In this document: positions 1,904 to 31,006 of the stretch, piece by piece
Layout: each line of letters begins with the position of its first letter
Numbering within the stretch: the stretch's first letter is position 1
Position numbers and translations under genes: made by a program
The notes under the pieces: model-generated
Database searches by the model: none
Told to the model about the DNA's origin: nothing
The model's input: only the letters and a program-made list of their open reading frames with translations
Source: Raillietiella orientalis
Lineage: Eukaryota
Direction: 5' to 3'
DNA length: 64,000 bases
Assembly (NCBI GenBank): GCA_036172245.1
Contig: JAYWIR010000032.1
Span: 248,001 to 312,000 of the forward strand

Positions 1904-1906
1904 TTA

Positions 1907-2636
1907 ATCGTCGCCGACTCGGCAGGAGAGGAGCAATCTGCCTACTGCCGCGGAGGTTGCGCTTTCGCCGCCATTTAAGATTGCAACGAAAGCTGCGCTC
2001 CAGGCGGCTGGGGAGGCACGTTCGGAGGCGTCCCTCACGAAAGTCACGGAGCGCCCAGAACGAACGGACGTCGCGTGTACGGTTGCGGTGGAAGGGAGAA
2101 AAATAAAATCTTTTAAAAATTCTCCGCAACCTAGTTCCAAGAGACTCTCCAAGGCAAAGAACAGTGGCGCGATGCTGAAGACACGCTCGAAGGTTCCCTC
2201 TGCCGCTGCAGAGGCTACCGCGGCGGTCGCGAATGGCGCGAAAGTTGCGATCGCCAGGGACAATGTTCCGGTGATCGCTAAAAAGGAAGTGTCCGCGGTC
2301 ATATTTGGGAGCACCTCCAAACCGACAGCGCAGGTGAGGCGCGAAGCGTCTGCGCTTCAATCAGACTCTCAAACGGAGTCTGGGATCACCGACGCACGTC
2401 GGATCACACGCGCGGAAGCCGTAGCGCGACGGGCTAAGGCCCTAAGGCGCGCAGCGCAGGCCGCGAAGGAGCGAGAGCTCATCCCGGAGCGTCAAAGGAC
2501 GTTACGCGGAAATGAGCACTTCATTTCGTGCAGCGCCAAGGAGGACAGTGGCGACCGTGATCTCCAGTCAGCAATGCTGCTCACCGTCCGCTCCCCGCGT
2601 AAAGCGGGTAAAATGCCGCCAAGATCCCAGCATTAA
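1907..2636 (+). pseudogene. P1 ORF1 C-terminal part (basic, Ala-rich)
   Basis: The frame of ORF 2088..2636 is open from ~1907 and ends in TAA overlapping the ORF2 ATG (cat TAATG). Confidence 0.7.
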
Positions 2637-5600: not shown

Positions 5601-6226
5601 ACAACCAAACTCCTTGGCACCTGGAAGACAAGTGAGTTGGCGGACGCCGCCACTCCTCGTGTTACTGCAAAGGGACTCCTCCGGTGGGCAGAAGAACTTG
5701 CTGTCACCCCCGAAGAACTTGTAGTCCCTCCACAGTGTATGGACAGTTCGCTGCTCCCCTTGCTTGGAAACAAGCCGTGCTGCTTCTCGTTCACTGGGGT
5801 TTTCAGTGCAACGAGCGTTGGCTTCGTGACTCCGGGGGACTTGCGTCTCCGAACTGCGTTCGGTGCGGATCGACGGAGTCGATTCCGCACCTACTTCTGG
5901 ACTGCGGTGTCCTACAAGGACTGTGGCGTAGGCTGGCAACAGCACTATTGCATCCCGTGGACACCGCAAGAGACTTGCTGCGACGATTCTTCACGCCGAG
6001 CGGGCTTTCACTAAGCGCAAGGATTGCAACCATCGGTTGCATACGCGCGATAGTTTCCGTCCGCCAGGCGTTGGTAATCAACGGACAGCACCAAGAGGAA
6101 ATCAGCAAAGCATCCTTCTTCATGGGAGCATCCGCTAGATGGCCTCATTTGTCAGAGGAGACAAAGAGGAATCTCGCCGCAATACACCGCCGGTTTACAC
6201 ACCCTCATCAGCGGCCAACCCGGTGA
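2636..6226 (+). pseudogene. P1 ORF2: APE endonuclease - reverse transcriptase - CCHC finger (2 frameshifts, 2 stops)
   Basis: WNVNG, LQE, NIYAP, GDFN, DHV and SDH (EN); KAPGEDG, LLPKGGD, RPITL, DLHKAFD, GIRQGDSLSP, YADD and KYLG (RT); CVRCGSTESIPHLLLDC. Spread over ORFs 2636..3265, 3204..4106, 4137..4787, 4839.. and 5684..6226. Confidence 0.93.
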
Positions 6227-6538
6227 TCATTGCCCTACCCTCCATAAACTAAATTTGTATTTTCTTTTTACACCCGCGTCCCCATAGGCTCCGGAACATT
6301 TTAGGTGCTCATCCTATAAATCCCCGTGAGTACGGAGCCTAACCAAAAACCCGTTACCCTTCCCTCCAGTTTTTAATTTTTGTTTGTTTCCCCTCATTCC
6401 CCCCACGCTGCGAGCGGTTTGTTTACCAGGCCTGCGTGCCGGTAATTTTTCTATGTTCTCTGTCGTTCTCTTGGTTGGAACATTGTCCCTGACCAGTTTA
6501 TTAATACTAATAAACGCCCCGGCGTGACCGGGTGATAA

Positions 6539-6881
6539 ATTTCAATCTCCGCCTGCTAACAGGTGAGCCCGAAACACAAGAGTACGCGATGATCGAGTTG
6601 TTCGCCGCCATGAGTGCGCGCAACTTGTTCGCGGGTGACAGGGTAATGGTCCGCAGCATCGACCACGTCTTCCTCGACGCTGACCTGTGTTCACGGGTCC
6701 GCAAATTGGAGAAGATTGCCTCCACGCAGTCGGACCATTCCCGGCTAATTTTCGAGAAGCGGTCTCGCGACAATGGACCGCTATCCAGGGACTGGCGTCT
6801 CCCCGAGGTCTGGAAGCGCCTCTCAGGTGCGAAGGAACACCTTCGCGAATACCTGAGAGGCGTCACGCTCCGGAATCTCCA
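6539..6881 (+). mobile_element. P2 piece 1: endonuclease C-terminal half, from (D)FNLRLL to LRGVTLRNL
   Basis: ORF 6532..6885 has FNLRLL...SIDHVFLD...SDH...WRLP; its reading frame resumes at 12397. Confidence 0.88.
6865..6881 (+). repeat. Target-site duplication of M4, left copy (ACGCTCCGGAATCTCCA)
   Basis: Identical 17-mer at 12397-12413. Confidence 0.93.
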
Positions 6882-7094
6882 TTGAAACCCGGGTGCGCCG
6901 GGACGTTTATTCTCACGAATAAACCTATACAATCTGTGTCTGGACCAGTAGTCCAGCCACGCCGTGGAAAGATATAGCTTGCCGGGCTACCGGTGCGCAG
7001 ACCGGCGCGGTCGACCTCGGCAGCAGAGAAGAGGGGGAACGAAACAAAAAGAAAACAAAAAATAAACAAAAATCAGGGAGGGAGCGGGAAGGGA

Positions 7095-10000
7095 TCACAG
7101 TCTGCTGGGAGGGTCCGTCATCCTCTGGAGGATGCCGGCAAGCTATTTCTGCTTGTGTGGTTCCAGAAGGGGCCATCGCGTCGCCATCCTGAGGAAACGG
7201 GCGGCATACACGTTGGCATCCCTGTCGCTGGATCCTCCCGTCGCTTTGCTCCATGCCACTACGATCCCGCGTAGGCAGCACAGGGCTGCAAGCGAGGCCG
7301 CTGGAGGCAGGGCGTCACGGACGAAGAGGGGGCGCAAAGCGTCTCTGGAGTTGCCTCCGGGGATCCCCGGGGCTGCGGCAAAGCGTTCCCACAAGGGACG
7401 GAGGGCAACACAATCCACTAACAGGTGGGGGAGGTATTCCCTCTCCCCACACCTGACACAATTAGGGTTGACACCCCCCCGCGTCCAGTGGTGTCGGCGG
7501 GCGTTGCAAGGAAGCCCCCAATGCAACACCATCAGTGCCGACTGTTGCCACTTCATGGGGAGGGTGCGCGAGTCCATGAACACCGGGGGCCACTCGAGAT
7601 GTTCCTCTGGAACATCCAGTAGCTCTCCCCAGCGCAACAGTCCATTTGGGGTGGTCCTCGGGGTCGCAGCGTTGGTGAGCTGACCCGTTCTCCAATCCAC
7701 GATCTTCTTTGCCCTGCTGTCGATCTTGACAGTAACCTCCCATTGTGCCGCGACGTCGCTGCCCAGATGTTCCCGTAGGGTAGGCAGTACCGCAGCAAGG
7801 GAGGTTCTTTGTGCCCACGCTCTCTTTCGGGGATTCTCGATGATTTCTCGGAGCGTGCGGCGGGCATGCGGCCCGAACAGAGCTATTCGCTCGTGTTGCA
7901 GGCTCTGCTCCTGAATCATCGCCCACGTGCGGACGGTTTCCTGCAACCAGGCAGGACCGTTCGCGGAGCGTACGAGGATCCGCTCCGAGTTGTTCTTCAG
8001 GAGCTTGGCCGCCCTCCGAAGTTGAAGTCCGCAGTGGCAGATGGGGCTTCGGAGTGCAAAGTAGGACGAGAGTCCCGCATTGCCGGTGGCCCGCTCGACG
8101 AGGAGACGTGCAGGGAGGCACCAAGGGGTGCACCAATTTTCTGCCATAAAGGCAACAACTCGGAACTGGAGCTGTAGCTCCAGCCGCTCCAACGTCAGGA
8201 GGGCCAGACCACCATCCCGACCAGGAGCGCACAAGTCCGAAAGACGGACTCGGGGCCTCCCTCTGCCCCAAAGGGCGATCCTCAGGAGGTCCTCCGTCCT
8301 CTTCTTTGACTCCGCTGAGGGGGGGCAAACAAAAAGCAAGGGGCGAAGGAGGGGGGCCGCAAACGCGTTCCACGCCGCGGCCCGTTCCTGCAGGTAGAAC
8401 CTGCCTTCCTGGAACGGGCCGATCGCCTCCTGAGCCTTCTGAAGGCACCCGGACCACGCTTCCGCAGGGGAGTAATCCCCCAACGGCACACCAAGGTACT
8501 TGAAGTACCTCACCGTGGGGATCCCCAAAACGGACCCAGTCCTGCTGCCCTGCCCACGCCGCTCCGACTGGCATTACGGAAGACTTCGCCCTGTTCACCG
8601 TCAGTCCTGTTCCCCGACTCAGCAGGTCGAAGAACTCCTCGACCGCCGCAGCCGGGGTGGACATAGGTAGCAGCAGCAGAAGGTCGTCCGCGTACGCCGA
8701 AACCGCAGGCGTACCGGGGCAATCGCACGACAGGTGCGCAAGAGTCTCCCTGTACGCTCTCAGCACCAATTCGAAAAAGGCGCTAAATAGCAGGGGGCTC
8801 AGGCTGTCTCCCTGCCGTATGCCCTGTCGCACCGGTACTCCGTGCACGGTTTGCCCGCTGAAAAGAACATTAATGAGCGCGTCGCGCCAGCTGGAGCGCA
8901 GGTAGGCCAACAAAGAGGCCGGGAAGCCCAAGCGTTCCAGAAGCTCCAGCAGGAGATTCTGGTCGACGCTGTCGAATGCTTTACGCAAGTCGACAGCGAA
9001 CGCAAGGGCTCCCTTCCCCACCCGACCGTTCCGTCTCCCGCCAAGGGACGCACCGGAATTCCGGCTGCTCAATAAGCCCCTTCCTTGTTGGAGCTCTAAC
9101 CATGTGGAAGCATGGAACAGGTTCGCCTCCATGCTCGGCCCGGGAACAGCATAAGTCTGTTCCGGGCTGATGAAGATGTTGGCAACCCGTCCCAGACGCT
9201 CTGCCCACATCTTGGTTATCAACTTGGCGTCCGCATCCACTATTGTGATGGGACGCCAGTTGTTCATGCTCCTTAGGTCTCCTCCCTTCGGGAGGAGCCG
9301 CACCTTTGCTGAACGAAACGAAGTGGGAACGTCACCTGTTTCACGGATCAGCAAGGTGAGCTGATGTACCAGGGGAGTAAGCTCAGCCGCGAAAGTTTGG
9401 TAAAACTTCGCGGGCAGGCCGTCCTCCCTTGGAGCCTTCAACCTCTTGAGCTTTCCGATGGCCGAGAGGATCTCGTCCATCGTGAAAGGCTCGTCGAGGC
9501 TTCTTTTCTCCTCCTCCCCGATCGCTGGAGCACCTTCCGGAAGCAGAATTCGTGAGACGTCCCGCTCCGGAGGCGCCCTGGCGTACAGGGAGGAGTAAAA
9601 TTTCCTGACTATCCCGCGTTTCTGAGTGCGAACCGAGTGCTCCCGGCCTTGGTCGTCCAGCAAGCTGGCCGACCCGGATTGCCAGGCTTGCCTCTCGGCT
9701 CCCGCTCGATACTCTTCTAACCTGCGCATGTCGGGGGTTATCGCGTAACGTCGGGCCTGAAGATAGCACCTTTCGTTACGCGGCCCCTCCCCAAATCCCG
9801 CAGGTAGGCGATGCAGGGGGAACTGATCGCAGAACTCCTGGACCGACCGCTTGAAGCGGTCCCAGTTCTGAAGTGTCTGCATCCTGAAGCTCCGAATAAA
9901 CGCGCGGAGGTGCTCCGCCGCGTAGGGAAACTTCAGCCAGTCCCCTGGCAGACGCCACGCTGACGAAGGGGTCCTTGTCGCGCGGACGCACTTCGAACAT

Positions 10001-10675
10001 GATCCGACCATGGTCCGACAGCTTGGATGGTACCTTGCCGCGCCTGCCAACCCGAGAGCATAGGTGCTGATCAAAGTACACGTGATCGATGCTGTTTTCT
10101 ATGGCCGTCTCCCCGGCCAACAAGTTGCGCGTGTTCATTTCTGCGCACAACTCGTTGACGCGGTCGTTCAGTGTATCCGGCGCACCTGAAAGCAGGCGCA
10201 GGTTGAAATCACCTGCGATCAGGTGCGCTTTGCGTACTCCTGCATCGGTCAGCCAATCGCGTCTCAGGGCAAGGTAGAATTCCCTTCTTGCCTTCGCCCT
10301 GAACGCGTTGTTTCCGCTAGGAGCGTACAGGTTGGTGACGACCAGGTCGATAGTGTCGGACCAGCTGAGAGTCAGCTGACCGACGCGACCTGCGTCATCG
10401 AACCGAACGTCCTTTATTGCGGTCTCGATGGCTGGCCGAAGCAGGAAGGCGACACCGCTTGATTTCGCGGTGCCGCAACGCCACAACAGCCGCCCACCCG
10501 AGATCCGTTCGATCTCCCGGGCTTGATCTGCGGAGATCACGTGGATCTCCTGCAGCAGCACCAGGTCGAAGGATGCCAGGGTGGCGGCCACGTCACGCCT
10601 CTTGCCGTCGTCGCTTAGCCCGTTCACGTTCCAACAGGCGATCAGAAGACGACGGCGAGAGGCGATTCCCGGCAT
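7095..10675 (-). pseudogene. M4 ORF2 (EN-RT-CCHC), 2 frameshifts and a late premature stop
   Basis: ORFs 9776..10675 (WNVNG, LQE, NLYAP, GDFN, IDHV, SDH), 7462..10074 (DLRKAFD, QGDSLSP, YADD) and 7143..8528 (KYLG, CVRCGEREYLPHLLVDC). Confidence 0.93.
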
Positions 10676-12314
10676 TATGGCTGGGAAAGTGGCGTCGCGA
10701 CACCTGCCGCGGGGCAGGTGTCGGAAAGGTCCATCGGTACGAGGACGGAGGCCTCTTCAGGCGCCTGGGGTACCTGATCGGCCTCCATCCTCACCATCCC
10801 CTCCGTGTCCGAGCGTGGAATTCTCTCGGGCGACGGGTCCCGGGAGTTTCCCACGCTCATGGCACCCTCGCTACCGGAAGCCATCTCTTCCCCTTCGTCG
10901 GGGGAGACGATCTTCCGGGGCATTGTGGACTTTCGTCCTGCCTTTTTGCGGGGTGCCGCGGAGATGGATGCTGTGTTTCCGGCCTTCACCTCGGGATCGG
11001 AAGTGGCCGACTCCTGAGGGGAAGCCGGACGCCTGACGGCCTTCTTGCCAGCCTTGGGGGCAACCGGCTGCAGCGAGGCAGCCAGCTCCTCCGCGGCGCG
11101 CTCGAAGGCGACGTCATCGAGCGTGGGCTCGATGACGGACGCCGCCGCCTCTCTCCCCTCCTTCTTGACTTTGTCAACGGAGGGTTGAGCAGGGGCAGCA
11201 GCGAGTTCTTTAGCGCCGCATCCGTCGATGGCGGGAATCCGCTCTACAACGACGCAGCAGCTTTTAATTTTTTCGCGGCGCAGAGCGGTTTCGCTCCGTT
11301 TCGCCACGTTCTTTCCCTTCTTATGGGAGTTTTTCTTGGGGTCGACCTTCTGCCACCCTGGCTCTTGACCCTCGCCCTCGACCTTTTCGCCGTTTTTCGC
11401 CGAAGTCTCGGGGCTGGCCTTCGCCTTGGTGGCGGTGACCTCCTTAGCAGCAGCACGAGCTGCCAGCTTCTTTCTCTTTTTTGCCGCGCGCTTTCTCGCG
11501 TTTTTCGCGGACACGACGCGGACTGTGTTTTAAGGGCACACCAGACGGGTGTGCCCCGCTTGTTTGCATTGCTGGCACTGCACGCTCGGACACCTCATTT
11601 TAAGGTGATTAAAGCTGCTGCAGCAGCCGCAAAACTTGGGTTTCCCCACGTACCACACGTCAACGGATTCACCGTTGACGGTAAGTTTGTGGGGAAACTC
11701 ACATCCCTCGCGAACCGTCACTCGCGCTGTACCCAGGCCGCCAAGCACCCCGTCGTAATCGACAAAAGGAGTAGGCTTTCCGCACAGCGCGTGGACAGTT
11801 GCAAACTTTTCTAATTCGTTCCGGACGGCCTCCTTCGTCATCCGGAACGTGATACCGGTCAGGTGAATGATCACCGACCGGTCTTCAGTAATGGGGAGAA
11901 GCCTCTGGCTGCCCATAATTACGGGGGTTCGCAGAAGTCTCTGCGCAAGAGTTGCCTCCTTGCAGATAACTTCCACAAATTGACCCCCGCTTCTGACGGA
12001 CATAGCCAGAAGCTCCTCTTTTTGTACACCGAGAACGCGCATCGCCTGCGAAAAGGCGCGCGCGTTCTCAGGAGAATATAAACCGCCTACCTTATATAGA
12101 AGGGGTGGGTTATACCCCTCCTCCAGGTAAGCGCGCATTTCCGCCATAGCCGCTGGCGTAGGTGCCGCAGCCACGGCGTTCCAAGCCCTGGGTAGGGCCG
12201 GGGGCGCATCCATGCTGGCGGAAGCCTCCACTGATGCGGGAGCCCCCACCTCCATCTCCTCCGGGGCAATGAGGTCATCGCCCCCGGATCCTCACCGGTG
12301 GTGGTATCAGGCAT
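10675..12314 (-). pseudogene. M4 ORF1 gag-like protein (RRM-like region + 2 CCHC knuckles)
   Basis: CGCCSSFNHLKMRC and CQQCKQAGHTRLVC in ORF 11530..12255. An in-frame TAA is followed by ORF 10675..11514. The N-terminal ATG at 12314 is frameshifted. Confidence 0.88.
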
Positions 12315-12396
12315 TGCTGCCTAATCCTCCACCCACACCACGCACAAGCACCAACGGAAATGAAACTCAGGAGCAACGAAAAGACACGTCCGCTCG

Positions 12397-13322
12397 ACGC
12401 TCCGGAATCTCCAGGACTGGGACCTTTTTCAGGAATCGGTCTGCGAGTTCTGCGAGCAGTTCCCCCTGGATCGCCTGCTTCCCGGATTTGGCTAGGGTGT
12501 TCGCAACCATCGAGCCTATTTCCAGGTTCGTTGTTACGAGAGAACCCCTAATGTATGTCGCTTGGCCGAGTACCGCGCTGGGGCCGAACGCCAAGCCTGG
12601 CAAACCGGGTCGGCCAGCTTTCTGGACGACCAGGGCCGGGAATGTTCGTCCCCGGCGTCGGTACGGCATCTCGTGAGAAGATTTTATTCATGCCTTTACG
12701 TCAGGACGCCTCCGGACCAAGATGCCTCTCGGCGCTTGTTCCCGGATGGTACCCCGCCCATAGGGGAAGAGGAGTCCGTAAGCTTCGACGAGCCTTTCAC
12801 TTCCGTAGAAATTCTCGCCGCTATCAGGAGGCTCAAGAGGCGTAGGGCGTCAGGTGGGGAAGGCTTGCCCGCGGAGTTCTTTCAGTGCTTCGCGGAAGAT
12901 CTTGCCCCCCTGCTGCTCGTGTTGACAAGGCTGATCCGAGACGAAGGCGATGTTCCCGCCTCGTTTCGGTCAGCCAGAGTGAGGCTCCATAAGAAAGTGG
13001 GAGACCTCAGGAAATTGCACAACTGGCGTCCGATCACCATCGTGAACACGGACGCCAAGTTGCCTGCAGGATTATAGGCTTCGCGTTTGGGGCAGGTGGC
13101 AGAGTCCATAATTAGCCCGGAGCAGACTTATGCTGTTCCTGGGCGAAGTATGGACGCCAACCTTTTCTTCGCAAGCACGTGGATGCACCTGCAAAGGAGA
13201 GAAAAGAAAGGAAAAGGGAAAATCGGCAACCCCACATTGGTGCCGCCAACGGGGCTGGGAAGGAATCCCGGCGCGGGGAAGGGAGCCCTAGCGATCGCAA
13301 TCGATCTCCATAAGGCGTTCGA
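12397..13322 (+). mobile_element. P2 piece 2: EN-RT linker up to RT motif A (DLHKAFD)
   Basis: Continues TLRNLQDWDLF... from piece 1; ORFs 12562..13077 and 13087.. run to AIDLHKAFD. Starts with the right TSD of M4 and ends with the left TSD of M3. Confidence 0.9.
13312..13322 (+). repeat. Target-site duplication of M3, left copy (AAGGCGTTCGA)
   Basis: AAAGCGTTCGA at 18894-18904 (one mismatch). Confidence 0.75.
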
Positions 13323-13541
13323 TCTTCACCCGGATTTCGCCGGGGCGTATATTGTAGAAGAAACATTTACAAAGACGTTCGGTGGCTGGACCATTGCTCC
13401 AGCCACGCACGAAGAAATACAGAGACTGCCGGGTCACCGGTTCGCAGACCGGTACGGTCCACCACGGCAGCAGGGGGAAAAGGGAAAAAACAAAAAACAA
13501 AACAAAAAAGAAAAGAAAAGTTGGGAGGGTAAGGGAAGGGA

Positions 13542-16500
13542 TCACAGTTGCTGGTGGGGCCGTTGCATCCTTTGCAGGATGCCGGCAAGCTCCTTCTGTA
13601 TTCCTGGATCCAGGTGGGACCATCGGGACGCCCTCCTCAGGAAGTGGGAGGCTGGCTGGATGGCACCCTGGTCGCGTTGTCCTCCCGTAGCCTTGCTCCA
13701 AGCGGTGACGATCCCGCGTAGGCAGCACAAAGCTGCTAACGATGCCGCTGGCCGAAGGGCGTCGGCAACGAAGAGGGCTTTCAGTGCGTCCCTGGAGTTG
13801 CCGCATGGGATTCCGATGGCCGCGGCAAAGCGAAACCAAAGGGGCCGAAAGGCAACACAATCCACTAGCAGGTGGGGGAGGGACTCCCGTTCCCCACACC
13901 TGACGCAATTGGGGTCCACCGCACCCCAGATCCAGTGGTGTCGACGGGCGTTGCAGGGGAGTCCCCAGTGCTGCAACAGGAGAGCCGACTCCTGCCATTT
14001 TGAGGGAAGGGCGGAAGTGTTCATGTGCACCGGGGGCCACTTCAGATGTTCAATGGGAACATCGAGCAGCGCGCCCCAGCGCAGAAGTCCATTGGGAGGC
14101 GTACTCGGGGACGCAGCGTCTGTTAACTGGCCCGTCTTCCACTCTAATGTCTTCTTCTTCTTTCCGGAGATTGTAACTGAAACCTCCCACTTCGCCGCAA
14201 CATCGCTGTCCAGATCATCCATCAGGGAGGGCAGCGCAGCAGCGAGGGGGGTTCTTCCTGCCCACGCTCTCTTCTTTGGATCCTCCAGGATCTCGCGGAG
14301 CGTGCAACTTCTGTAACCCCCAAACAGGAACCTTTGTTCCTGTTGGGAGCGTTGCATGCCGAACTGTCCCCACGTTCGAACGGTTTCCTGCAACCAGGCA
14401 CTACCGTTCAACAGGCGACAGGTGAGCAATCGTGGGTTTTTGCGATATAGCGTAGCCACCCTCCGTAGCTGGAGTCCGCATCGGTTGACGCAGCGACGGA
14501 GTGCAAGAAGCGACGTCAGTCCCGTCTTGCCGATAGCTTGCTGGAGAAGGAGACGTGCAGGGACGCACCAACAGGTGCACCACAACTCTGCAACGAGTGC
14601 CGACAAGCGGAACTGCAGCTGAAGCTCCAGCCGCTCCAGCGTCAGGATGCTCAGACCACCATCCCGACGAGAAGCGCACAAGTCCTTTAAGCGGACTCGG
14701 GCCCTCCCGTTGCCCCAAAGGGGGATACGGAGGAGGTCCTTAGTCCGCTTTTTGATCCTCTCTGTGACGGGGCAAACAAAAAGCAGGGAGCGGAGGAAAA
14801 AAGCCGCGAACGTGTTCCAAACCGCGGCCCGTTCAGGCAGGAAAAACCTGCCGCCTCGAAACGGGCAGATCGCCGCCTGAGCCTTCTGAAGGCAGCCGGA
14901 CCACGCTTCCGCAGGGAAATAGTCCCCAACGGTACACCAAGGTACTTGAAGTACCCCACCGTGGGGTTCCCCAAACGGACTCAGTCCTGCTGCCCTGCCC
15001 ACGGCGCACCAACTGGCATCACGGACGCCTTCACCCTGTTCACCGTAAGTCCGGTTCCCCGATGCAGCAGGTCGAAGAACTCCTAGACCGCCGCAGCCGT
15101 GGTGGACATGGGGAGCAGCAGCAGAAGGTCGTCCGCGTATGCTGAAACGGCCGGCGTACCCGCACAGTCGTGCGGCAGGTGCGCCAGAGTTCCCCTGTAC
15201 GCACTCAGTACCAGCTCAAAGTAGGTACTGAAGAGCAACGGGCTCAGGCTGTCTCCCAGCCGGATCCCACGCCGCACCGGCACGCCGTGCACGGTCTGCC
15301 CGCTAAAAGTAACCTTGATGAGCGCGTCGCGCCAGCTAGAGCGCAGATAGGCCACTAATGAGGCCGGGAAGCCCAAGCGTTCCAGAAGCTCCAGAAGGAG
15401 ATTCTGGTCGACGCAATGGAATGCTTTACGTAAGTCGATTGCGACCGAAAAGGCTCCCTCCCCCACCCGACCATCCAACCCCCTGCCGGCGCACGCACCA
15501 AAATTCCGGCTGCGCACCAAGCTCCTTTGATGTTGGAGCTCTAGCCAGGTGGAAGCGTGGAACAGGTTCGCCTCCATGCTTCGCCCGGGAACAGCATATG
15601 TCTGTTCCGGGCTGATGAATATGTTGGCAACCCGTCCCAGACGCTCTGCCCACACCTTTGCTGGCAACTTGGCGTCCGCTTTCACTATTGTGATGGGACG
15701 CCAGTTGTTCATGCTCCTCAGATCTCCTCCCTTAGGGAGGAGCCGCACCTTTGCCGAACGAAACGAGGCGGGAACGTCGCATGTTTCGCGTATCAGCAAG
15801 GTGAGTTGCTGTACCAAAGGGGTAAGCTCAGCCGCGAAAGTTTGATGAAACTTCGCGGACAGGACGTCCTCCCCTGGAGCCTTTCGCCTCTTGAGCTTTC
15901 CGATGGCCGAGAGGATCTCGTCCATCGTAAAAGGCTCGTCGAGGGTCTTTCTCTGCTCCTCCTCGATCGCTAGAGCGCCTTCCGGAAGCAGGAGTCGTGA
16001 GATGTTGCTCTCCGGAGGTGCCCTGGCATACAGGGAGGAGCAATTACTCCGCAGCAGGCCGCGGATTTGGGCAGGTGCCGAGCGCTCCTGGCCCTGATCG
16101 TCCAGTAAGCTTGCCGATCCGGACTGCCAGGCTTGCCTCTGGGCTCCCGCTTTGTATTCCGCCATCCTGCCGATGTCGGGGGTCCTGGCGTAACGACGGG
16201 CCTGCAGGTAGGCTCGTTCGTTACGGACCACGGTCCCAAAACCCGTAGGTAGGCGGTGCAGAGGGAACTGGTCGCAGAACTCCTGGACCGACCGGTTGAA
16301 GCGGTCCCAATCCTGTTGTGTCTGCAGCCTGACGCTCCGTATGGACGTGCGGAGATGTTGCGCCGCGTCCGGGAGCTTCAGCCAGTCCCCTGGGAAACGC
16401 CACGCTGACGAGGGGGGGCCCCTGTCGCGCGGATGGATCTCGAGGACTAGCGGGCGATGGTCGGACAGCTCGCACGGTAACTTGCCGCGCCTGCCCACGC

Positions 16501-17122
16501 GAGGGCACAGGTGCTCGTCAAGAAACACGTGGTCAATGCTGTCTTCCATCCCCGGTGCACTGGCCAACAAATTACAGGTGTGCACCGCCATGCACACGTC
16601 GTTGACCAGGTCACTCTCGGGATTCTGCTCATCTGGTTTCAGGCGAACGTTGAAATCGCCTGCAACCAGATGGGCATTCCGCACGCCTGCATCGGTCAGC
16701 CAGTCTCGCCGGAGGGCAAGGAAAAACTCTTTCCTCGCGCTCCTGTTCATCAGGTGCTTGCCGCTCGGTGCGTACACGTTCGTGACGATCAGATCGATCG
16801 AGTCGAACCACCTGAGGGTCAGCTGGCCGACACGACCGTGATCGTCGAACCGCACGCCCCGAGCCGCGGTCTCGACGGCTGGCCGAAGCAGGTAGGCGAC
16901 ACCGCAACTTTTCGCTCTTCCACACCTGTACCATAGCCGCCCTCCGGAGATCCGTTCGATCTCTTGCGCTTGTTCTGCAGAGATCACGTGGATGTCCTGC
17001 GGCAGCGCAAGGTCGTAGGACTCCAGAAGGGCGGATATGTCTCGTCTCCTGACGGCGTCTGTCATGCCGTTCACGTTCCAAACGGCGATGCGCAGACGAC
17101 GGCGGGAGGAGATTCCCGGCAT
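13542..17122 (-). pseudogene. M3 ORF2 (EN-RT-CCHC), with stops and a frameshift near 15.0 kb
   Basis: ORF 15083..17122 (679 aa, EN through YADD) and ORF 13542..15002 (CVRCGERESLPHLLVDC). Confidence 0.93.
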
Positions 17123-17136
17123 TACTGCTGGGAAGA

Positions 17137-18798
17137 TTAAGGTGTGGGGGAGCCCTCCTCTTGCGAGGCAGGCGAAATGTCCATGGGGGTTTCGGCCTTC
17201 TCAGGCACCTGAGGCACCTGTTCGGCCTCCACCCCCTCCATCCTTTCCGTGTCCGCGCGTGGGAGTCTCTCGGGCGACAGGTCCCGAGAGTTTCCCACGC
17301 TCATGGCTCCCTCGCTTGCGGAAGCCATCTCTTTCCCCTCGACAGGGGAGATGGACTTCATCGGCTTTGTGGACTTACGTCCAGCCTTCTTGCGCGGTGC
17401 CGTGGAAACGGAGGCTGCTCTTCCGGCCTCCACCTCGGGGTCAGAAGTGGAGGACTCCTGAGGGGAGGCCGGACGCCTTACGGCCTTCTTGCCAGCCTTG
17501 GAGGGTTCTGGCTGCAACGAGGCTGCCAGCTCCTCCGCGGCTCGCGCGAAGGCTGCGTCATCGATGGTGGTGTCGATGACCGACGCCGCCGCCGGCTCGC
17601 TTCCCTCGCTGTTGACAGTGTCAACAGAGAAGAGGTCGTCGGTAGCGGCGAGTTCTTTCCTGCAGCGTTCGGCAACATCGAGAACACGTTCGACAACGAC
17701 GCTGCACTCTTTAATTATCGCGCTACCCTGCTCTTCCTTCTTTTGTTGGTAGGCGATTTTCTTTTCCATCCTCCTCTCCTTCTTTGATTTTTTGGCCGTT
17801 GCCACTTGCCACCCAGTCTCCTGGCCGGCTCCCTCAACTTTTTCGGCGTTGGTCGCCGGGGTCACGGGTGCGGCCTGGGTCTTGGGCGCGGGTGGTACAG
17901 CCTTCGCGGCAGCTTTCGCCGCCAGCCCTTTCTGCAGAAGCCGGGCGCGTTTTTTAAGGTTTCTCTTGGAAACCACCCGCACTGCTGCTTTTGGGCACAC
18001 CTCCCTCGTGTGGCCCATTGTGCCGCATACTTGGCACTGCACATTGGGACACCTCTTTGTAAGGTGGCCTGACGTATTGCAGAAGCCACAGTATTTCGGC
18101 TTCCCCACATACCAGAGGTCGACGGTTTCGCCTTCGACCACCAGTTTGTGGGGAAGAGTGCAGCCCTCCCGAACGGTCACGCGCGCAGCAGTAAGGCCGT
18201 GTTGCAGCCCCGTGTAGTCCTCGAAAGGACTAAATTTCGTCCATTGCGCGTGGACCGTTCCAAACTGTTCGAAAGCGGCGCGAACCTGTTCTTTGCGCAT
18301 TCGCGCGGTCACGCATAACACGTGGACCACCATGCTGCGGTCCGCCGTAGTGGGGAGAAGCCTACGCGTGCCCATCACAACGGGGGTTTTAAGCAGTCGT
18401 TGGGCCAGCTCTGCATGTTTGCAGATGACCTCAACGTACTGACCCCCGCTGCGGATGGTCATAGCGCTGAGCTCCTCCTTTTTCACATCGAGAGCGCGCA
18501 TAACCTTCGAGAAGCCGCGCGCGCTCTCTAAAGAATATAAATTGCCTACCTTGTAGAACAATGAGGGGTTGTACCCCTCCTCTACATAGGCCGACAATTC
18601 CGCCGCGGCTGCAGGCGATGGCGCCGACACAACGGCGCTCCACGCCCGCGCTGCAGCGGGGACCGATTCTGTGGGGGCGGATGCCCCCACCTCCATCGCC
18701 TCTGAGGGTGAGGTTGCCGCCGCCCCCTGGCTCTCCATCGCCTCTGGGGGCGGTGTTTCCGCTGCCCCCTGGCCATCTCTGGTGGTCCCGTCAGGCAT
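17137..18798 (-). CDS. M3 ORF1 gag-like nucleic-acid-binding protein, nearly intact (RRM-like + 2 CCHC)
   Basis: Open frame from MPDGTT; CGFCNTSGHLTKRC and CQVCGTMGHTREVC. It stops 5 codons before the conserved TAATG. Confidence 0.85.
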   Translation of the reverse strand: MPDGTTRDGQGAAETPPPEAMESQGAAATSPSEAMEVGASAPTESVPAAARAWSAVVSAPSPAAAAELSAYVEEGYNPSLFYKVGNLYSLESARGFSKVMRALDVKKEELSAMTIRSGGQYVEVICKHAELAQRLLKTPVVMGTRRLLPTTADRSMVVHVLCVTARMRKEQVRAAFEQFGTVHAQWTKFSPFEDYTGLQHGLTAARVTVREGCTLPHKLVVEGETVDLWYVGKPKYCGFCNTSGHLTKRCPNVQCQVCGTMGHTREVCPKAAVRVVSKRNLKKRARLLQKGLAAKAAAKAVPPAPKTQAAPVTPATNAEKVEGAGQETGWQVATAKKSKKERRMEKKIAYQQKKEEQGSAIIKECSVVVERVLDVAERCRKELAATDDLFSVDTVNSEGSEPAAASVIDTTIDDAAFARAAEELAASLQPEPSKAGKKAVRRPASPQESSTSDPEVEAGRAASVSTAPRKKAGRKSTKPMKSISPVEGKEMASASEGAMSVGNSRDLSPERLPRADTERMEGVEAEQVPQVPEKAETPMDISPASQEEGSPTP

Positions 18799-18893
18799 CG
18801 CTGCCTGATCGACCACCGAACCACACGATGCTTGCACTGGGAGACTTCCTGGCACGAGGAGCACCGAGAAAACACGTCCACCCTGAAGCACGC

Positions 18894-20955
18894 AAAGCGT
18901 TCGACAGCGTAAACCAGGACCTCCTTCTGGAGCTTCTGGGACGCCTAGGCCTTTCGACGCACCTCATCGCCTACTTGCGCTCCTGCTGGCGCCACGCGTT
19001 ATGCTGTATCTCTTTCAGCGGGCGCCACGTGTACGGCATACCCATACGGCGGGGTATCAGGCAGGGAGACAGCTTAAGCCCCCTGCTCTTCAGCATCTTC
19101 TTTGAGTTGGTGCTGAGGGCGTACAAGCTGACGCTGGCCAACCTGCCGAGCTCCTGCCCGGGAACACCGGCCGTGGCCGCCTATGCTGACGACCTTCTCC
19201 TGCTGCTGCCCATGTCCACCCCGGTGTCCAGGCTCGAGGACTTCTTCGAGCTCATCCGTCGGGGAGCGGACCTGAGCGTCAACAGGACGAAATCAACCGT
19301 TGTACCGGTTGGCTCTACGTGGGAGAGGCAGTCCGACTGGATCCGCCTGGGGATCCCCACGGGCAGGTGCTTCAAGTACCTCGGCGTTCCCTTGGGCGCC
19401 TTCTGTCCAGCAGAAGCGTGGTCGGACTGCCTTCAGAAGGCCGAGACTGCTCTGGGCCCGTTCCATGGCGGCAGGTGTCTCCTGTCGGAACGGGCCTTCG
19501 TGTGGAACAATTATGTTGCCCCTCTCCTCCGTCCCCTCTTTTTTGTTTGTCCCCCTCCCTAATCGGCTAAGCGTTGGACGCAACGCCTGTTGCGTAACGC
19601 CCTGTGAGGACCGGCGAGGTCCAGGATCCGCCTGAAGGACTTGGCGGCTCCTCGGCGGGATGCAGGATTGGCCATCCTGACGCTGGAGCGGATCGGACTG
19701 CTAGTGCAGTTCCGCATGCTGGCCCGTTGTGCGCAGCTCTGGACTACTCCCTGGTGTGCTCCAGCGCGGCTGCTGCTGCGGCGCTGCACGGGTGCCGACG
19801 GACTACGTTCGTTGCATCTGCGCACGGAGCGCGCCCAGAGAGGATTCGGTTTCCCTTTGAAGCAGCTCGCCACGCTTCTGGGAAAGCATGAGTGGATCTC
19901 CTGCCGAGCGACGAACTTCAACGCCTGGAAGCAGGAAGCCCTATCGTCCTGGGCAGCGCAACAGGATGTGTCCGGTTTGGAACTCCGTTACGTGAAACTT
20001 TCCCCATACTGTCCAGTGGGGGAGGTGCTGGGAGACCAGGACCAGTGGACACGCCTAGCCGCTACGCCACTCGCCGAAGCACTGTGTGCACTGATGGTGC
20101 GACATGACAGTGACCAGCCGGCGAGGTGGGAGATCACTTGCGAAATCGCAGGCGAAACCCGACTGCTGGGCGGCTGGCGGACTTGCGAAGTGGCAGATGC
20201 TGCCACACCTTGCATTCTTGCAAAGGGGCTTCTCCGGTGAAGTGAGCTCCTCGGGGTGCCCATCGATGAACTTGTGGTCTCTTCTACGTGTTTGGACGCG
20301 ACTCTCTTCCCCCTTCGGTGGAAGCAGGACGCTTTTCTGCTGGTGCATTGGGGTTTGTACTGCAACCAGCGGGTGCACCTGATTTCCGGGGGAGTTGCGT
20401 CCCCTAACTGTGCCAAATGCGGAGCGGTGGAATCGCTTCCGCATTTGCTGTTTGAGTGCTGTGCCTTCCAGGAGCTGTGGCGGCGGCTGTCTTCAGCGCT
20501 CCTGCACCCTGGACACACCGCACTGGATTGGATGCGCCGCTTCTACAAGTGTGGCGGACTTTCTCTTGGAGCGGTCTTCGCAATCATCTGCTGCGTCCGC
20601 GCCATTGTCAGGGCCCGCCACGTATTACAGATGCGAGCAGTCCCAACATCGGTCCCCGATACCGCAGCCTGCAACCTGCAAATGGCTGCCGGGTGGCCAC
20701 ATCTTGGAGCAGTAGAGGACGGAGATCGGCGGCATGCACCGCCAGTTCTGAGAATAGGAACGGTTAGACCGTATACCCCTGTCCCCGCCCTCCCACCCAA
20801 TTTATTTGTTTATTGTCCAACCCCCTCCCGTTCCGAACTCTCAGTTGCTCGGACTGCGTTCAGGGAAATCTGCTCCCCATTTTCTGTTTCCCTTGCCTGG
20901 GAACACAGTTCCCAGTTGATATTATAATAAACGTCCTGGCGCAACCGGGTAATAA
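18894..20955 (+). mobile_element. P2 piece 3: RT from KAFD to the 3' terminus
   Basis: KAFDSVNQDLL...QGDSLSP...YADD...KYLG; CAKCGAVESLPHLLFEC; ends AATAAACGTCCTGGCGCAACCGGGTAATAA. Confidence 0.9.
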
Positions 20956-22113
20956 ACGACAACGCTGCATTCTTTAATTTGCTCGCTTGCCTGCTCTTTT
21001 TTCTGGCGGTCCGCGAGCTTTTCCTCCATCCTCCTCTCCTTCTTTGATTTTTTGGTTGTAGCCACCTGCCACCCTGGCTCCTGGCTAGTTCCGTTGACTT
21101 GTTCGGCGTTTTTCAGCGCGGTCTCGGATGCGGACTTGGCCTTGGGCGCGGGTGGCGTAGCCTTCGCGGCAGCTTCCGCCGCCAGCCTTTTCTGCAGAAG
21201 CCGGGCGCGTTTTTTAAGGTTTCTCTTCGAAACCACCCGCACTGCTGCTTTAGGGCACACCTCCTTCGTGTGACCCATTGTGCCGCATACTTGGCACTGC
21301 ACGTTGCGATACAGCGTTTAGAGGTGGCCGGACGTATTGCTGAAGCCGCAGCATTTCGGCTTCCCCACATACCAGAGGTCGACGGTTTCGCCTTCGACCA
21401 CCACTTTGTGGGGAAGAGTGCAGCCCTCCCTAACGGTCACTTGGGCATCCGTGAGGCCGTGTTTCAGCCCCGTGTAGTCCTCGAAGGGACTAACTTTTGT
21501 CCACTGCGCGTGGACCGTTCCGTGTTCCTCCAACGCGGTGCGAACCTGTTCCTTGCGCATCCGCTCGATAACACCTAACAGGTGGACCACCGTGCAGCGG
21601 TCCGCCGTAGTGAAGAGGAGCCTGCGCGTTCCCATCACCACGGCGGTTTTAAGCAGTCGTTGGGCCAGCTCTGCTTGTTTGCAGATGACCTCAACGCACT
21701 GACCCCCGCTGCGGATGGTCATAGCGCTGAGCTCCTCCTCTTTCACATCGAGAGCGCGCATGCCCTTCGAGAAGCCGCGCGCGCTCTCTAAAGAATATAA
21801 ATTGCCTACCTTGTAGAACAATGAGGGGTTGTACCCCTCCTCTACATTGGCCGACAATTGCGCCGCGGCTGCAGGCGATGGCGCCGACACAACGGCGCTC
21901 CACGCCCGCGCTGCAGGGGTCACTGATTCTGTGGGGGCGGATGCCCCCACCTCCATCGCCTCTGGGGGCGACGTTGCCGTCGCCCCCTGGCCATCTCTGG
22001 TGGTCGCCTCAGGCATCGCTGCCTGATCGACCACGGAACCACATGACGCTAGCACTAGGGGAGACTTCCTGGCACAAGGAGCACCGAGAAAACACGTCCA
22101 CCCTGGAGCACGC
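20956..22113 (-). mobile_element. M2: 5' end and most of ORF1 of the M3 subfamily, interrupted by the 3' end of P2
   Basis: Near-identical by eye to 17700-18893; ORFs 21318..22115 and 20922..21302; breaks at KECSVV. Confidence 0.9.
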
Positions 22114-24195
22114 AAGGCGTTCGATTGCGTAAATCAGGATCTCCTGCTGGAGCTTCTGGAACGTCTCGGTCTCTCGGTGCACCTCGTGGCGTATTTGCGC
22201 GCTTGCTGGCGCCACGCGATCATTTCCATCTCTTTTAGCGGCTGCCACGTGTACGGCGTGCCGGTGAGGCGGGGCATCAGGCAGGGCGACAGCTTAAGCC
22301 CGTTGCTCTTCAGCATCTTCTTTGAGTTGGTGCTGAGGGCGTACAAGCTGACGCTGGCCAACCTGCCGAGCTCTTGTGCAGGAACGCCGTCCGTGGCGGC
22401 CGATGCTGACGACCTGCTTCTCCTCTTACCCATGACCACCCCGGCGTCCGGTCTCGAGGATTTCTTCGAGCTGATTCGCCGGGGAGCGAGCATGAGCGGA
22501 AACAGGAGCAAGAGCGTGGTCGTACCTATTGGTGCGGCGTGGGAGGGGCAGTCCGACTGGATCCGCCTGGGGATCCCGACCGCTTCCTCCATGCAATATC
22601 TGGGCGTTCCGCTGGGGAACATCAGCCCAGTGGAAGTGTGGTCGGACTGCCTTCGGAAGGCTACGAGTGCGCTGAGCCCGTTCCACCATGGCAGGTTCGT
22701 CCTGCCGGAGCGGGCCACGATATGGAACACCTTCGTTGCCCCCCTCTTGCGCCCCTTGCTTTTTGTTTTCCCGCTCCCCTGCTCTGCCAAGCTCCAGGCG
22801 CACAGCCTTTTGAGGAACGCTCTGTGGGGACCTGCGAGGTCCAGGATGCGCCTCAAAGACTTGGCGGCTCCGCGTCGGGATGCTGGTTTAGGCATCCTGA
22901 CGCTGGAGAGAATGGAGCTGCAGGTGCAGCTTCGGATGTTGGCCCTGTGCGCCAACGTTTGGTCCACTCCGTTGTGCGCTCCCGCGCGCCTGCTTCTGCG
23001 GCGCTGCACAGACAGCGATGGATTTCTGTGGCTGCGGCCGCAAACGGAGCGCGCCACGAGAAGCCTCGGTTTCCCCTTGAAACCGCTCTTCCGGTTCCTG
23101 GAAGCCCAGGAATGGATCTCCTGCCGCCCAACGAACTTTCAAGCCTGGCGGCAGGAACCGTTTTATGGCTGGGCAAAGCAGCAGGATGTTTCCCTCCTTG
23201 AACTCCGTTGCGCTCACCTCTCCCCGTACTGCACGGTGGATGAGGTGTGCAACAGCCAGGAGAAGTGGACCAGCCTGGCCGTCACCCCCCTCTTCGACGC
23301 AGTCAGCCCTCAGGGCAAGAGATGACAGCTGCGAACCGGCGAGATGGGAGGTCGCCTGCACCATCGCAGGAACAACGCGACCTATTGGCGGCTGGAGGAC
23401 TTGCCAGCTGGCGGACGCCGCCACGCCTCGCCACGTTCCGAAGGGACTCCTTCGGTGGTGAACACTTAAGTGTGGCCCCCGAAGAACTTGTGGTCCCTCC
23501 CTCCTGTTTGAACACTTCTGTGTTCCCCCTTTCGTGGAAGCAGTACGTCATCATGCTGGTGCATTGGAGTTTTCACTCCAACCAGCGCACGAACCGTGTT
23601 TCCGGGGGAGTTGTCTCCCCAAACTGTAAGCGGTGCGAGGAAGTGGAAACGCTCCCGCACCTGCTCCTGGACTGCAGTGTTCTCCAAGGACTTTGGCGGA
23701 GGCTGGCCTCAGCTCTCCTGCACCAGGGGGACACCGCGAGAGACTTGATGCGCCGCTTCTTCACGCCAGGTGGCCTGTCTTTGGGTGCTGTCGTTGCAAC
23801 CGTGTGTTGCACCCGCGCCATCGACAAGGCCCACCGAGAGTTGAAGAAGCTGGCCATCCTTCGTCAGCCCTGAGGATTAGCCAGCGCAAGCATGTCGTCG
23901 GCTGCCGAGTGGGCCCACCTACCAGAGAGCGTGAGGAGAGAGATCGCCGGCATCCATCGCCGGTTCTGAAAGGAAGGAACGGCCGAACCAAAGACCCCTG
24001 TCCCCTGCCCTCCATATTTGTCTTTTTATTTTTTATAGTAGTGTATTTGTGGTCCCCTCCCTCCCGTTCCGGACTTTCGGCATACCGACCTGCGTGTCGG
24101 GGATCCCACCCCCTTCGTCTCTTGTTTTCCCCTTTGTCCAGGAACTCTGTTCCCGGATAGTTTTTAATAAACGCTCCAGCGCACCCGGGTGATAA
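22114..24195 (+). mobile_element. P3: LINE from RT KAFD to the 3' terminus (defective, DADD in place of YADD)
   Basis: ORFs 22177..23325 and 23247..23873 (CKRCEEVETLPHLLLDC); ends AATAAACGCTCCAGCGCACCCGGGTGATAA. Confidence 0.9.
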
Positions 24196-24570
24196 CCAGC
24201 CCACCCTCCGCGATCGTTTCGATCTCCTGGACGTCTGCCGCGGTGATCACATGGATCTACTGCAGCAGGGCCAGGTCGAACTCACGCAGGGTGCCGGCCG
24301 CATCTCGTCTGTTGCCGTCGTCGCGCAGCCCGTTGGCGTTCCAACTGGCCACGCGGATCCGACGGCGACAGGCGAGCCCAGGTGTTATTCCTGGGAAATC
24401 GGCTCTGCGGCTTGCGCCACCTGTTGGGGCGGGACGCAAGGAGGAGGAGGGGCAGGTGCGTCGAGCACCTGCTACGTACATGGAGGTGTGTTCCTCGCCC
24501 CGTCCGGCTAGGCATTAGCCGGTAGCACGGCGGATGGGGGAGCCCAAGCACACCCCGTCTCTGCTGCAGG
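24196..24570 (-). mobile_element. M1: 5'-truncated LINE (ORF1 tail + start of endonuclease), outermost element of the nest
   Basis: PGLACRRRIRVASWNANGLRDDGNRRD...FDLALLQ. Abrupt switch to AT-rich DNA at ~24570. Confidence 0.82.
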
Positions 24571-30639: not shown

Positions 30640-31006
30640 CACCGGGGCCTACCGGAGACTTAGGATCGACTGAACCATGCTCAAAGGCTGTTCGTATGGA
30701 ACCCTTCTCCACATCAGACCTCCAGGATCTTACTGGAGTATTTGCTACTACCACCAAGATCTTCGCCAACGGCGGCTCCAGGCGAGCTCGCGCCCAAACC
30801 CTTCTGCGCGCACCGTCACGACCCTCCTACTCTCCGGAACCTGAGAACCTGCCGTCCTCCGGAACGCGCTCGGAAGGCAGGAACGGCTGTGTCCTGGCGG
30901 TTGGGTATAGGCTCGACTCTTGAGCGCCATCCATTTTCAGGGCTAGTTGCTTCGGCAGGTGAGTCGTTACAGATTCCTTAGCGGATTCCTACTTCTATGG
31001 CCACCG
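30640..31006 (-). rRNA. 28S (LSU) rRNA fragment, dispersed pseudogene
   Basis: Reverse complement contains conserved LSU blocks CGGTGGCCAT..GAATCCGCTAAGGA, CTCACCTGCCGAAGCAACTAGCCCTGAAAATGGATGGCGCTC, GATCTTGGTGGTAGTAGCAAATA, GTGGAGAAGGGTTCCAT and CAGTCGATCCTAAG. Confidence 0.93.

Follow-up and report, generated by a model that had tools for sequence, protein, structure and literature searches.

Two LINE families nested antisense in one another, with two junctions at the same reverse transcriptase codons, in Raillietiella orientalis

A cluster of retrotransposons in the genome of Raillietiella orientalis raises the question of whether one LINE lineage has been directed to a fixed site in the reverse transcriptase (RT) gene of another. 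The window, which is the whole stretch of 64,000 nucleotides analysed here (contig JAYWIR010000032.1, positions 248,001 to 312,000), begins with a GC-rich nest of LINEs carrying APE and RT (1-24,560), composed of a family P on the + strand and a family M on the - strand (Table 1). The GC content of this nest is 0.55-0.62 (about 0.59) versus 0.35-0.55 elsewhere in the window, and lower-GC, non-LINE DNA lies beyond M4. In this locus the two LINE families are inserted into one another, in every case antisense: at least five nestings are present within 24.5 kb at four different sites, namely M1 and M3 into P2, M2 into P3, P2 into M2, and P3 into M4.

Table 1. Elements of the LINE nest, with positions counted from the first nucleotide of the window
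Element	Positions	Strand	Description	Basis or remarks
X0	1..1915	-	5' part of another LINE	translations; weak tblastx matches to M ORF1
P1	1916..6538	+	P-family LINE: ORF1 C-terminal part, APE, RT	Pfam APE/RT, tblastx map
P2 piece 1	6539..6881	+		tblastx, M3-equivalent positions 2237-2577
M1	6882..12396	-	M-family LINE, antisense in P2	non-KAFD site, 17-bp duplication
P2 piece 2	12397..13322	+		ends ...IDLHKAFD, M3 duplication left copy 13312-13322
M3	13323..18893	-	full-length M-lineage LINE, 5,571 bp, antisense at P2 KAFD codons	
P2 piece 3	18894..20955	+		KAFD codons (right duplication copy 18894-18904) to P-type 3' terminus 20945-20955
M2	20956..22113	-	5' 1,158 bp of M3-lineage element	5' end at P3 KAFD codons
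P3	22114..24195	+	P-family element	KAFD codons (22114-22124) to 3' terminus (24185-24195)
M4	24197..24421	-	M-like fragment	74.8% identity to M1 10487-10688; directly after P3 3' end

The left part of the nest is formed by X0, the ORF1 of which combines an RRM-like region with three CCHC knuckles. X0 joins P1 head-to-head, its right boundary being approximate (+/-30 bp) and judged by eye. P1 terminates in ...CCGGGTGATAA at 6528-6538, and the 5'-truncated P2 begins immediately after this 3' end. The first piece of P2 closes with the left-hand copy of the duplication around M1, which is perfect over 17 bp (17/17; ACGCTCCGGAATCTCCA at 6865-6881 and 12397-12413). M3 contains an ORF1 with two CCHC knuckles, APE, and RT, and runs from its 5' end GCGTGCTTCAGGGTGGACGTG... 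to its 3' end ...CCGGGTGAAGA. It entered the same P2 as M1 but at an unrelated site, and the P2 sequence beyond it continues as a single reading frame carrying three in-frame stops. The 3' terminus of P2 abuts M2 at 20955/20956 with no extra bases, as would be expected from an insertion of P2 into M2, which would explain why M2 is present as a 5' fragment. Neither the remainder of M2 nor the 5' half of P3 falls within the window, and M2 is seen from its 5' junction alone.

Both M and P elements are APE-type non-LTR retrotransposons. PF03372 and PF00078 both match the M3 frame at 15083-17200, and APE and RT are also found in the M1 and P1 frames. Altogether, eight of the 20 scanned frames match PF00078 and/or PF03372, while a ninth has a sub-cutoff zf-RVT match only. 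The best relatives of solved structure are human LINE-1 ORF2p (E 6e-38 and 6e-34), with R2 proteins at E 1e-10 or weaker, and ORF2 accordingly appears L1-like, with a probable place within the L1/Tx1 group. P and M represent separate clades, as identity is 70-74% among P elements and 75.7-77% among M elements (M1-M3), and 59-60% between P and M. Tree support is 100% for the M1-M3 pair and 75% for the P2-P3 pair. Searching the protein database with the RT of M1 returned 36 matches, all of them at most 33% identical except P0001, which is M-like rather than P-like (72% to M1, 62% to P1). The 3' ends of P and M have a short terminal hairpin motif in common, with unremarkable fold z-scores (-0.5 to -2.5).

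The site at issue is the stretch of K-A-F-D codons in the RT motif A region. The 11-mer AARGCGTTCGA occurs exactly four times, at 4341, 13312, 18894, and 22114, all on the + strand, against 0.07 expected from shuffles. The first-pass annotation of this DNA had placed the 5' ends of M2 and M3 at one and the same nucleotide of this 11-mer (18894 and 22114), and the 3' end of M3 against a further copy at 13312-13322, giving a target-site duplication. Both observations hold: M3 is flanked by AAGGCGTTCGA and AAAGCGTTCGA, an 11-bp duplication matching at 10/11 positions. P2 is colinear across M3 in tblastx, M3-equivalent positions 3407-3475 lying at 13252-13320 and positions 3458-3970 at 18885-19397. 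The empty site proposed in P1 at 4341-4351 is indeed an uninterrupted KAFD site, and the corresponding motif of the M elements themselves, which had also been singled out, reads AAAGCATTCGAC in M1 and AAAGCATTCCAT in M3. Junctions of the M2/M3 lineage fall at the 11-mer in two of two cases at the 5' end and one of one at the 3' end, and the related M1 went elsewhere (1/1), all at one locus. The sequence GCGTTCGA next to the junction is unique within P1 and within the P2 pieces.

Such a pattern could arise from two insertions or from a single one that was copied, and the divergence of the parts bears on this choice. The two M copies had been described as near-identical; in fact M2 and M3 are 89.1% identical (1027/1152 aligned bases), with 48 of their last 50 nt identical. 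The P parts of the same two units are identical at 1484/2054 positions (72.2%; Fisher p=6e-31 against the M parts), with a sharp step in identity at the M/P junction. Within the first 100 nt past the junction, P2-P3 and P3-P1 each agree at 81/100 positions, and over the first 100-300 nt P2-P3 identity is not above P3-P1 identity. Differences between P2 and P3 concentrate at third codon positions, as had been claimed (131/90/221 at positions 1/2/3; p=5e-14), and this bias persists without CpG sites and without transitions, non-CpG transversions being distributed 46/34/70 (p=3e-4). The dN/dS comparison proposed at that stage gave an omega of 0.27 in the true frame versus 0.99 and 1.81 in the wrong frames. 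For M2-M3, omega is 0.43 and the codon-position differences are 42/25/51 (p=0.012), a signal lost for transversions alone. With an omega of 0.27 and only three indel events in 1.7 kb, P2 and P3 diverged under purifying selection, as separate live elements before being hit.

The equal neutral divergence along the M/P unit that is expected for a tandem duplication was not found. The suspicion that the M/P junction might travel as a single composite unit is correct to the extent that there are two adjacent units, colinear across the junction (17693-20793 vs 20956-24013, 78%), but a simple duplication is rejected by their unequal divergence (89% vs 72%). Two independent insertions rather than a duplicated composite, as first suggested, remain the best explanation, given this inequality and the coding-type divergence of P2 and P3. 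Two other origins of the junctions were considered and rejected. Twin priming or 5' inversion is out, given that M and P belong to different families and that a separate duplication surrounds M3. So is the 5' transduction of flanking P sequence by M, since the end of the P3 segment coincides exactly with a P 3' terminus, to which M4 is joined.

The explanation that we prefer, and hold to be somewhat probable, is that one M lineage inserted twice, independently, at one site by sequence-directed targeting. The older M2 and the younger M3 would each have integrated antisense by target-primed reverse transcription, M2 in P3 and M3 in P2, both at one phosphodiester bond within the K-A-F-D codons. 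The P-sense strand was opened after ...GCGTTCGA and the other strand 11 nt away, an offset resulting in the 11-bp duplication around M3. Each insertion splits the RT gene of its P host. Read from the nesting, the order of events is P3, then M2, then P2, then M1 and M3, and with this order the site preference would have persisted through about 11% divergence of the M lineage. The agent directing the lineage to the KAFD sequence would be its own APE endonuclease, possibly aided by pairing between the target and the 3' flank of read-through M transcripts. Pairing of this kind has been described for rDNA-specific LINEs. The data point to targeted insertion by the M2/M3 lineage, with a specificity that derives from two events in adjacent colinear units at one 24-kb locus, a narrow base that speaks against targeting. 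Also against it are the entry of M1, of the same family, into P2 at an unrelated site, and the 3' flanks of P1, P2, and P3, which are unrelated to each other, so that the wider clade is not sequence-specific.

A more far-reaching version of targeted insertion, which we find doubtful, makes the M2/M3 lineage a dedicated parasite homing antisense to the codons beside the catalytic aspartate of a rival RT. The rival P could not easily change such a target sequence, and M would escape its own targeting through synonymous or neighbouring differences (GCA vs GCG; LR vs LH codons upstream). Each re-insertion into a new copy of P would be guided by read-through transcripts that include the flank of the target. 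Hyperparasitism, self-immunity, and competitor inactivation as a strategy would be inferred roles.

Instead of targeting one sequence, the elements may nest by region with a loose motif preference (TCGA or TTCGA), the shared site in P2 and P3 being a coincidence among few preferred sites. The LINEs would then accumulate in LINE clusters already present, in the manner of Zepp/ZeppL or Celine. This is unlikely, but in its favour the 24.5 kb form a GC-rich nest throughout, with at least five nestings at four sites. Moreover, the junction of the P2 end in M2 is likewise at CGTTCGA, as read from the M3 homologue at 17687. P1 contains TCGA 15 times per strand and TTCGA six times in sense and twice in antisense, so the chance of hitting the same site would be about 0.03-0.12 (for TTCGA alone about 1 in 8). 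Without any preference, the same base and orientation would be hit by chance about once in 10,000 (P about 5.5 kb, two strands). Against a loose motif, the insertion sites of M1 and P3 are not TCGA, hence there is no common short motif, and a comparison of the junctions found no nick motif common to all insertions in the locus. Furthermore, two of the three P-family KAFD sites within the window are occupied by the M2/M3 lineage.

Improbable, in our judgement, is a single insertion followed by copying of a composite of M and the P 3' part, whether as a tandem duplication or through retrotransposition of a transcript that began in the M 5' region and extended into the P 3' end, with later gene conversion or template switching creating the difference between M and P. 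Besides the adjacency and colinearity of the units, M2 is present solely as the portion inside its unit, and a 14-nt GCGTGCTYCAGGGT stands at the 5' ends of M2 and M3 (13/14 bases common to both) and is absent from M1. If this leader was an untemplated addition, it would argue for a single event. The unequal divergence with its sharp step at the junction, however, is hard to reconcile with copying, and the signature of purifying selection with almost no indels between P2 and P3 is impossible for a dead composite. P2 and P3 differ already inside the 11-mer, from its third base on, so that recombination would have had no P tract common to both to act on. Additionally, the left edge of the second unit is exactly where P2 terminates at its 3' end, the outcome expected from an insertion of P2, and M3 carries its own duplication.

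An assembly artefact, in which repeats of 60-90% identity were mis-joined into false junctions, is conceivable in a region made up entirely of related repeats, but the clean junctions, the in-frame duplications of 11 bp and 17 bp, the colinearity of P2 across both insertions, and differences of 11-40% between the elements, too large for collapse errors, make it highly improbable. Among sequencing runs there was one match, X1 (share 0.18), which has parts of the region; no RNA run was among the matches listed. Of 421 X1 records compared with the window, the evidence comes from eight contig pieces and six of 280 loose ends listed. None of the X1 pieces listed bridges 13322/13323 or 18893/18894. 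One X1 contig of 259 nt matches P2 at 18892-19113 with five differences and then departs from the M3 sequence, and another joins 13322 to 18972; both appear compatible with uninterrupted P copies. In a further X1 contig, 20960 is connected with the position in M3 that is homologous to the start of M2, and hence the junction between the P2 end and M2 is not peculiar to this assembly.

Searches for further copies yielded little. The pattern of the M 5'-terminal 23-mer gave no stretches in metagenomes, and the M ORF1 alignment gave 451 pattern stretches there, none confirmed. The RT alignment gave 85 pattern stretches in genome contigs, of which one was confirmed as an unrelated, 24%-identical RT on a 1.8-kb contig, and 20 stretches in viral contigs, none confirmed. 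The junction-spanning + frame (residues 30-135 of 18504-19562) had 206 candidates in the protein database, none of them significant.

Among known systems, the rDNA-specific R1 and R2 elements insert precisely and repeatedly into a conserved multicopy sequence and inactivate the host unit. The M2/M3 insertions would resemble them in all these respects. The target of R1 and R2 is an rRNA gene, however, and the R2 endonuclease is of a different type from that of M. Furthermore, nothing resembling a ribozyme turned up at the 5' end of M, where a search of the region 18300-19100 for ribozymes and known RNAs gave only two sub-threshold matches to unrelated families. Target-specific LINEs are known from rRNA and snRNA genes, microsatellites, and DNA transposons, and in the literature searched no report of a LINE directed to the RT codons of another LINE came to light, which is not proof of absence. 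If true, such aim at the RT coding sequence of a rival would represent a direct conflict between retrotransposons, with a target that the victim replenishes through its own activity and that the function of its enzyme keeps under constraint, and would provide a natural endonuclease with a defined target on the 11-bp scale.

LINEs of the Tx1 clade offer a parallel by insertion habit. Excerpts of Kojima (2015, PMC4494074) describe Tx1 in Tx1D (piggyBac), Tx1-Mar in Mariner-N4_AMi, and Tx1-9_AMi about 300 bp into Harbinger elements. As there, an APE-type LINE would occupy a fixed position inside another mobile element and have a renewable multicopy target. In these excerpts the targets are DNA transposons, snRNA or rRNA genes, and microsatellites, whereas here it would be the RT coding sequence of another LINE, hit antisense; the specificity is drawn from two events rather than many copies, and the likeness implies no phylogenetic placement. 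Celine, a centromere-targeting LINE of poplar, lies mostly inside other retrotransposons, and its authors used the duplications to settle whether the LINE rides on the host element (PMC11288735, in part). Its copies each have a unique duplication, indicating regional targeting, in contrast to the one site common to two copies in the present locus.

Even in the weaker reading, the antisense cross-nesting of two families informs how LINE-only clusters of a Zepp-like or centromere-like kind are built. Zepp and ZeppL are L1-type LINEs of green algae that form clusters by targeting existing copies (Blanc 2012, PMC3446292; Craig 2021, PMC8226300). The parts of these sources drawn on here give cluster sizes of 1.5-42 kb and a GC content of 61% for Zepp versus 53% for the genome. 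The present nest likewise is GC-rich and built by insertions into pre-existing LINE copies. Zepp arrays, as described in those parts, consist mostly of the 3' ends of 5'-truncated copies of one family, whereas the present nest alternates between two families on opposite strands, with M1 and M3 near full length at about 5.5 kb and two insertions at one nucleotide; the likeness meant here is one of cluster structure.

The first 24,560 nt of the window, with a GC content of 0.55-0.62 against 0.35-0.55 across most of the remainder, consist throughout of non-LTR retrotransposons with APE endonuclease and reverse transcriptase (RT) domains (Pfam PF03372 and PF00078). Human LINE-1 ORF2p is the nearest solved relative of their ORF2 (E 6e-38 and 6e-34), R2 proteins being far weaker. 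ORF1 of the minus-strand elements carries two canonical CX2CX4HX4C knuckles, read directly from the translation, for which no Pfam call was obtained. The families P and M were separated on the region of about 1.7 kb from the K-A-F-D codons of RT motif A to the 3' end. Here, identity is 70-74% among P copies, 77% between M1 and M3, and 59-60% between P and M, with grouping support of 100% for M1-M3 and 75% for P2-P3. The strand split is total in positions 1-24421, every P copy lying on the plus strand and every M-type copy on the minus strand. P1 and P2 meet head-to-tail at 6538/6539, X0 and P1 head-to-head near 1915, and non-LINE DNA comes after M4.

Retrotransposon copies of the block and copies of the shared terminal motif (window positions)
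Feature	Position	Strand	Description
X0	1 to about 1915	-	5' part of another LINE
P1	about 1916-6538	+	intact KAFD site at 4341
P2	6539-6881, 12397-13322, 18894-20955	+	three pieces, 5'-truncated
M1	6882-12396	-	within P2; perfect 17-bp duplication
M3	13323-18893	-	within P2
M2	20956-22113	-	M positions 1 to about 1197 only
P3	22114-24195	+	KAFD through 3' end
M4	24197-24421	-	fragment, M-like
3'-terminal motif	13323-13348, 6882-6907, 6513-6538, 20930-20955, 24170-24195, 48732-48757

M3 is a bona fide insertion into P2 with an 11-bp target-site duplication, as the first-pass annotation had read it: its flanks are AAGGCGTTCGA (13312-13322) and AAAGCGTTCGA (18894-18904), and P2 is colinear across it. 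The 5' end of M2 joins P3 at the nucleotide used by M3, both junctions reading ...TCGAACGCYTT followed directly by GCGTGCTYCAGGGTGGACGTG... in M sense, in agreement with the proposed fusion to the KAFD codons at one base. Four copies of the 11-mer AARGCGTTCGA are present where 0.07 would be expected, each forming the K-A-F-D codons of a P element, and P1 indeed retains the empty site. The motif-A codons of the M elements themselves read AAAGCATTCGAC in M1 and AAAGCATTCCAT in M3, with Asp changed to His. M2 has to be redescribed as only a 1.16-kb 5' fragment of an M element. A single base (AAG vs AAA) separates the left and right copies of the M3 duplication, though M3 is nearly intact, while the M1 duplication is perfect; the left copy has the P3/P1 form. 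The mismatch may have arisen by later mutation or be a flank trace brought in by a read-through M transcript. In the N-terminal region of ORF1, a 42-bp unit is present in two copies in M3 (18691-18773; TRF score 124) and one in M2 (21950-21990).

Self-comparison revealed that the 5' part of M3 with the 3' part of P2 (17693-20793) is colinear with M2 and P3 (20956-24013) at 78%, the units being adjacent. As a single composite M/P unit had been named as contradicting two insertions, a duplication was tested. Such adjacent units do exist, but identity is 89.1% (1027/1152) in the M parts, earlier called near-identical, as against 72.2% (1484/2054) in the P parts (Fisher p=6e-31), so the comparison of the two pairs that had been called for found P the more divergent. 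The step coincides with the M/P junction: the final 50 nt of M agree at 48/50, P2 and P3 are already unlike at base 3 of the 11-mer, and their identity over the first 100, 200 and 300 nt from the junction (81/100, 161/200, 253/300) about equals that of P3 and P1 (81/100, 161/200, 241/300). Differences between P2 and P3 fall mostly at third codon positions, as first noticed (131/90/221 at positions 1/2/3, p=5e-14), also among non-CpG transversions alone (46/34/70, p=3e-4). The true frame gives an omega of 0.27, against 0.99 and 1.81 for the two wrong ones, only 3 indel events occur in 1.7 kb at 26% divergence, and the 3' part of P2 is a single frame with 3 stops. This coding signature would be impossible for a dead, M-interrupted composite, and P2 and P3 thus derive from different live P elements. 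Constraint between M2 and M3 is weaker (42/25/51, p=0.012; omega 0.43) and fits two source elements apart in time. Unequal divergence, the P coding signature and the weaker M signature thus argue against a simple duplication; the M2 and M3 insertions were very probably independent events.

By our own arithmetic, hitting the same base and strand twice in an element of roughly 5.5 kb has a chance of ~1e-4 in the absence of any preference, and a short-motif preference makes coincidence more likely than that. In P1, TCGA occurs 15 times per strand and TTCGA six times in sense and twice in antisense. GTTCGA is found once per strand in P1 and once, in sense only, in the P2 pieces; the 7-mer CGTTCGA and the 8-mer GCGTTCGA are unique in both. 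The M1 insertion into P2, away from the KAFD site, lies at ...AATCTCCA^GG, the P3 insertion site lacks TCGA and the P1 flank is unrelated; with sites so disparate, the whole clade is not sequence-specific. The site specificity proposed for the M subfamily would concern the two same-base junctions and would not extend to M1. For the M2/M3 lineage, with n=2 events, sequence-directed targeting is the best explanation and a reasonably probable one. The locus anatomy is real; the adaptive "hyperparasite" role proposed for it is an inference. The P2 entry point in M2 (17680-17700, 20950-20965) reads ACACGTTCGACAACG in M3 and contains CGTTCGA(C), as in the KAFD target, and P3 entered M4 ~25 nt from a further CGTTCGA, which may reflect a shared nick motif or chance.

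The P2 3' terminus (...CCGGGTAATAA, 20945-20955) abuts M2 sequence (ACGACAACGCTGC...; M3 homologue ...CGTTCGACAACGACGCTGC at 17687) without extra bases, a seamless joint of the kind produced when P2 inserts into M2 by target priming. M4 is joined directly to the P3 3' terminus. From the nesting, M4 would have come first, then P3, M2 and P2, with M1 and M3 last, and the absent halves (remaining M2, 5' half of P3, 3' part of M4) would be expected left of the window. A contig of the public sequencing run X1 links 20960 with 17771, which in M3 corresponds by homology to the M2 start; it spans the P2-end/M2 joint, which is thus present in independent data. All five clear nestings are antisense (M1 and M3 into P2, M2 into P3, P2 into M2, P3 into M4; two-sided p=0.06), and X0/P1 are likewise head-to-head. 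At 6528-6545, no more than about 8 nt separate the P1 3' terminus (...CCGGGTGATAA) from the start of 5'-truncated P2, and no shared duplication was found at this junction. Template switching could have produced the joint as a chimera; alternatively, a second element could have inserted at the 5' junction of the first.

Two metagenome scans gave no match, and other sequence collections and the protein database yielded nothing with a junction. The one close relative of the M1 RT in the protein database, P0001, is a 619-aa intact RT on a 2.9-kb metagenome contig; at 72% identity to M1 and 62% to P1, it is classed as M-like. All remaining relatives from the database stay at <=33% identity; public protein sets therefore cover this LINE group poorly. 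Run X1 contains related contigs; among the matches listed, none bridges an M/P junction and two are compatible with uninterrupted P copies. Tx1-clade LINEs are described as inserting at set positions within DNA transposons, microsatellites and small RNA genes (PMC4494074), Zepp/ZeppL LINEs as aiming at existing copies and so building up nested, GC-rich clusters (PMC3446292, PMC8226300), and Celine as nested in centromeric retrotransposons, each copy with a unique duplication (PMC11288735). The literature search found no account of a LINE directed at the RT codons of another LINE.

Both families share a 3'-terminal hairpin motif, CCCGG-N5/6-CCGGGTGA(T/A)(A/G)A. Their 3' termini are alike (AAACGYCCCGGCG...CCGGGT with a short A-rich tail) despite only about 60% identity between families, and an older LINE at 43.8-48.8 kb also ends in this motif. 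Its sharing by P, M and the older LINE hints that their 3' ends are recognised in a common way and that the elements may mobilise one another. Elsewhere, an old plus-strand LINE fragment at 30654-31062 has an interruption of about 360 bp between M3-equivalent positions 4938 (at 30654) and 4940 (at 31016). Within it, on the minus strand, lies a fragment of eukaryotic LSU rRNA (30905-31062; 86.7 bits to Rfam RF02543 over model positions 1179-1347), and rRNA-like sequence may, judged by eye, reach back to about 30660.
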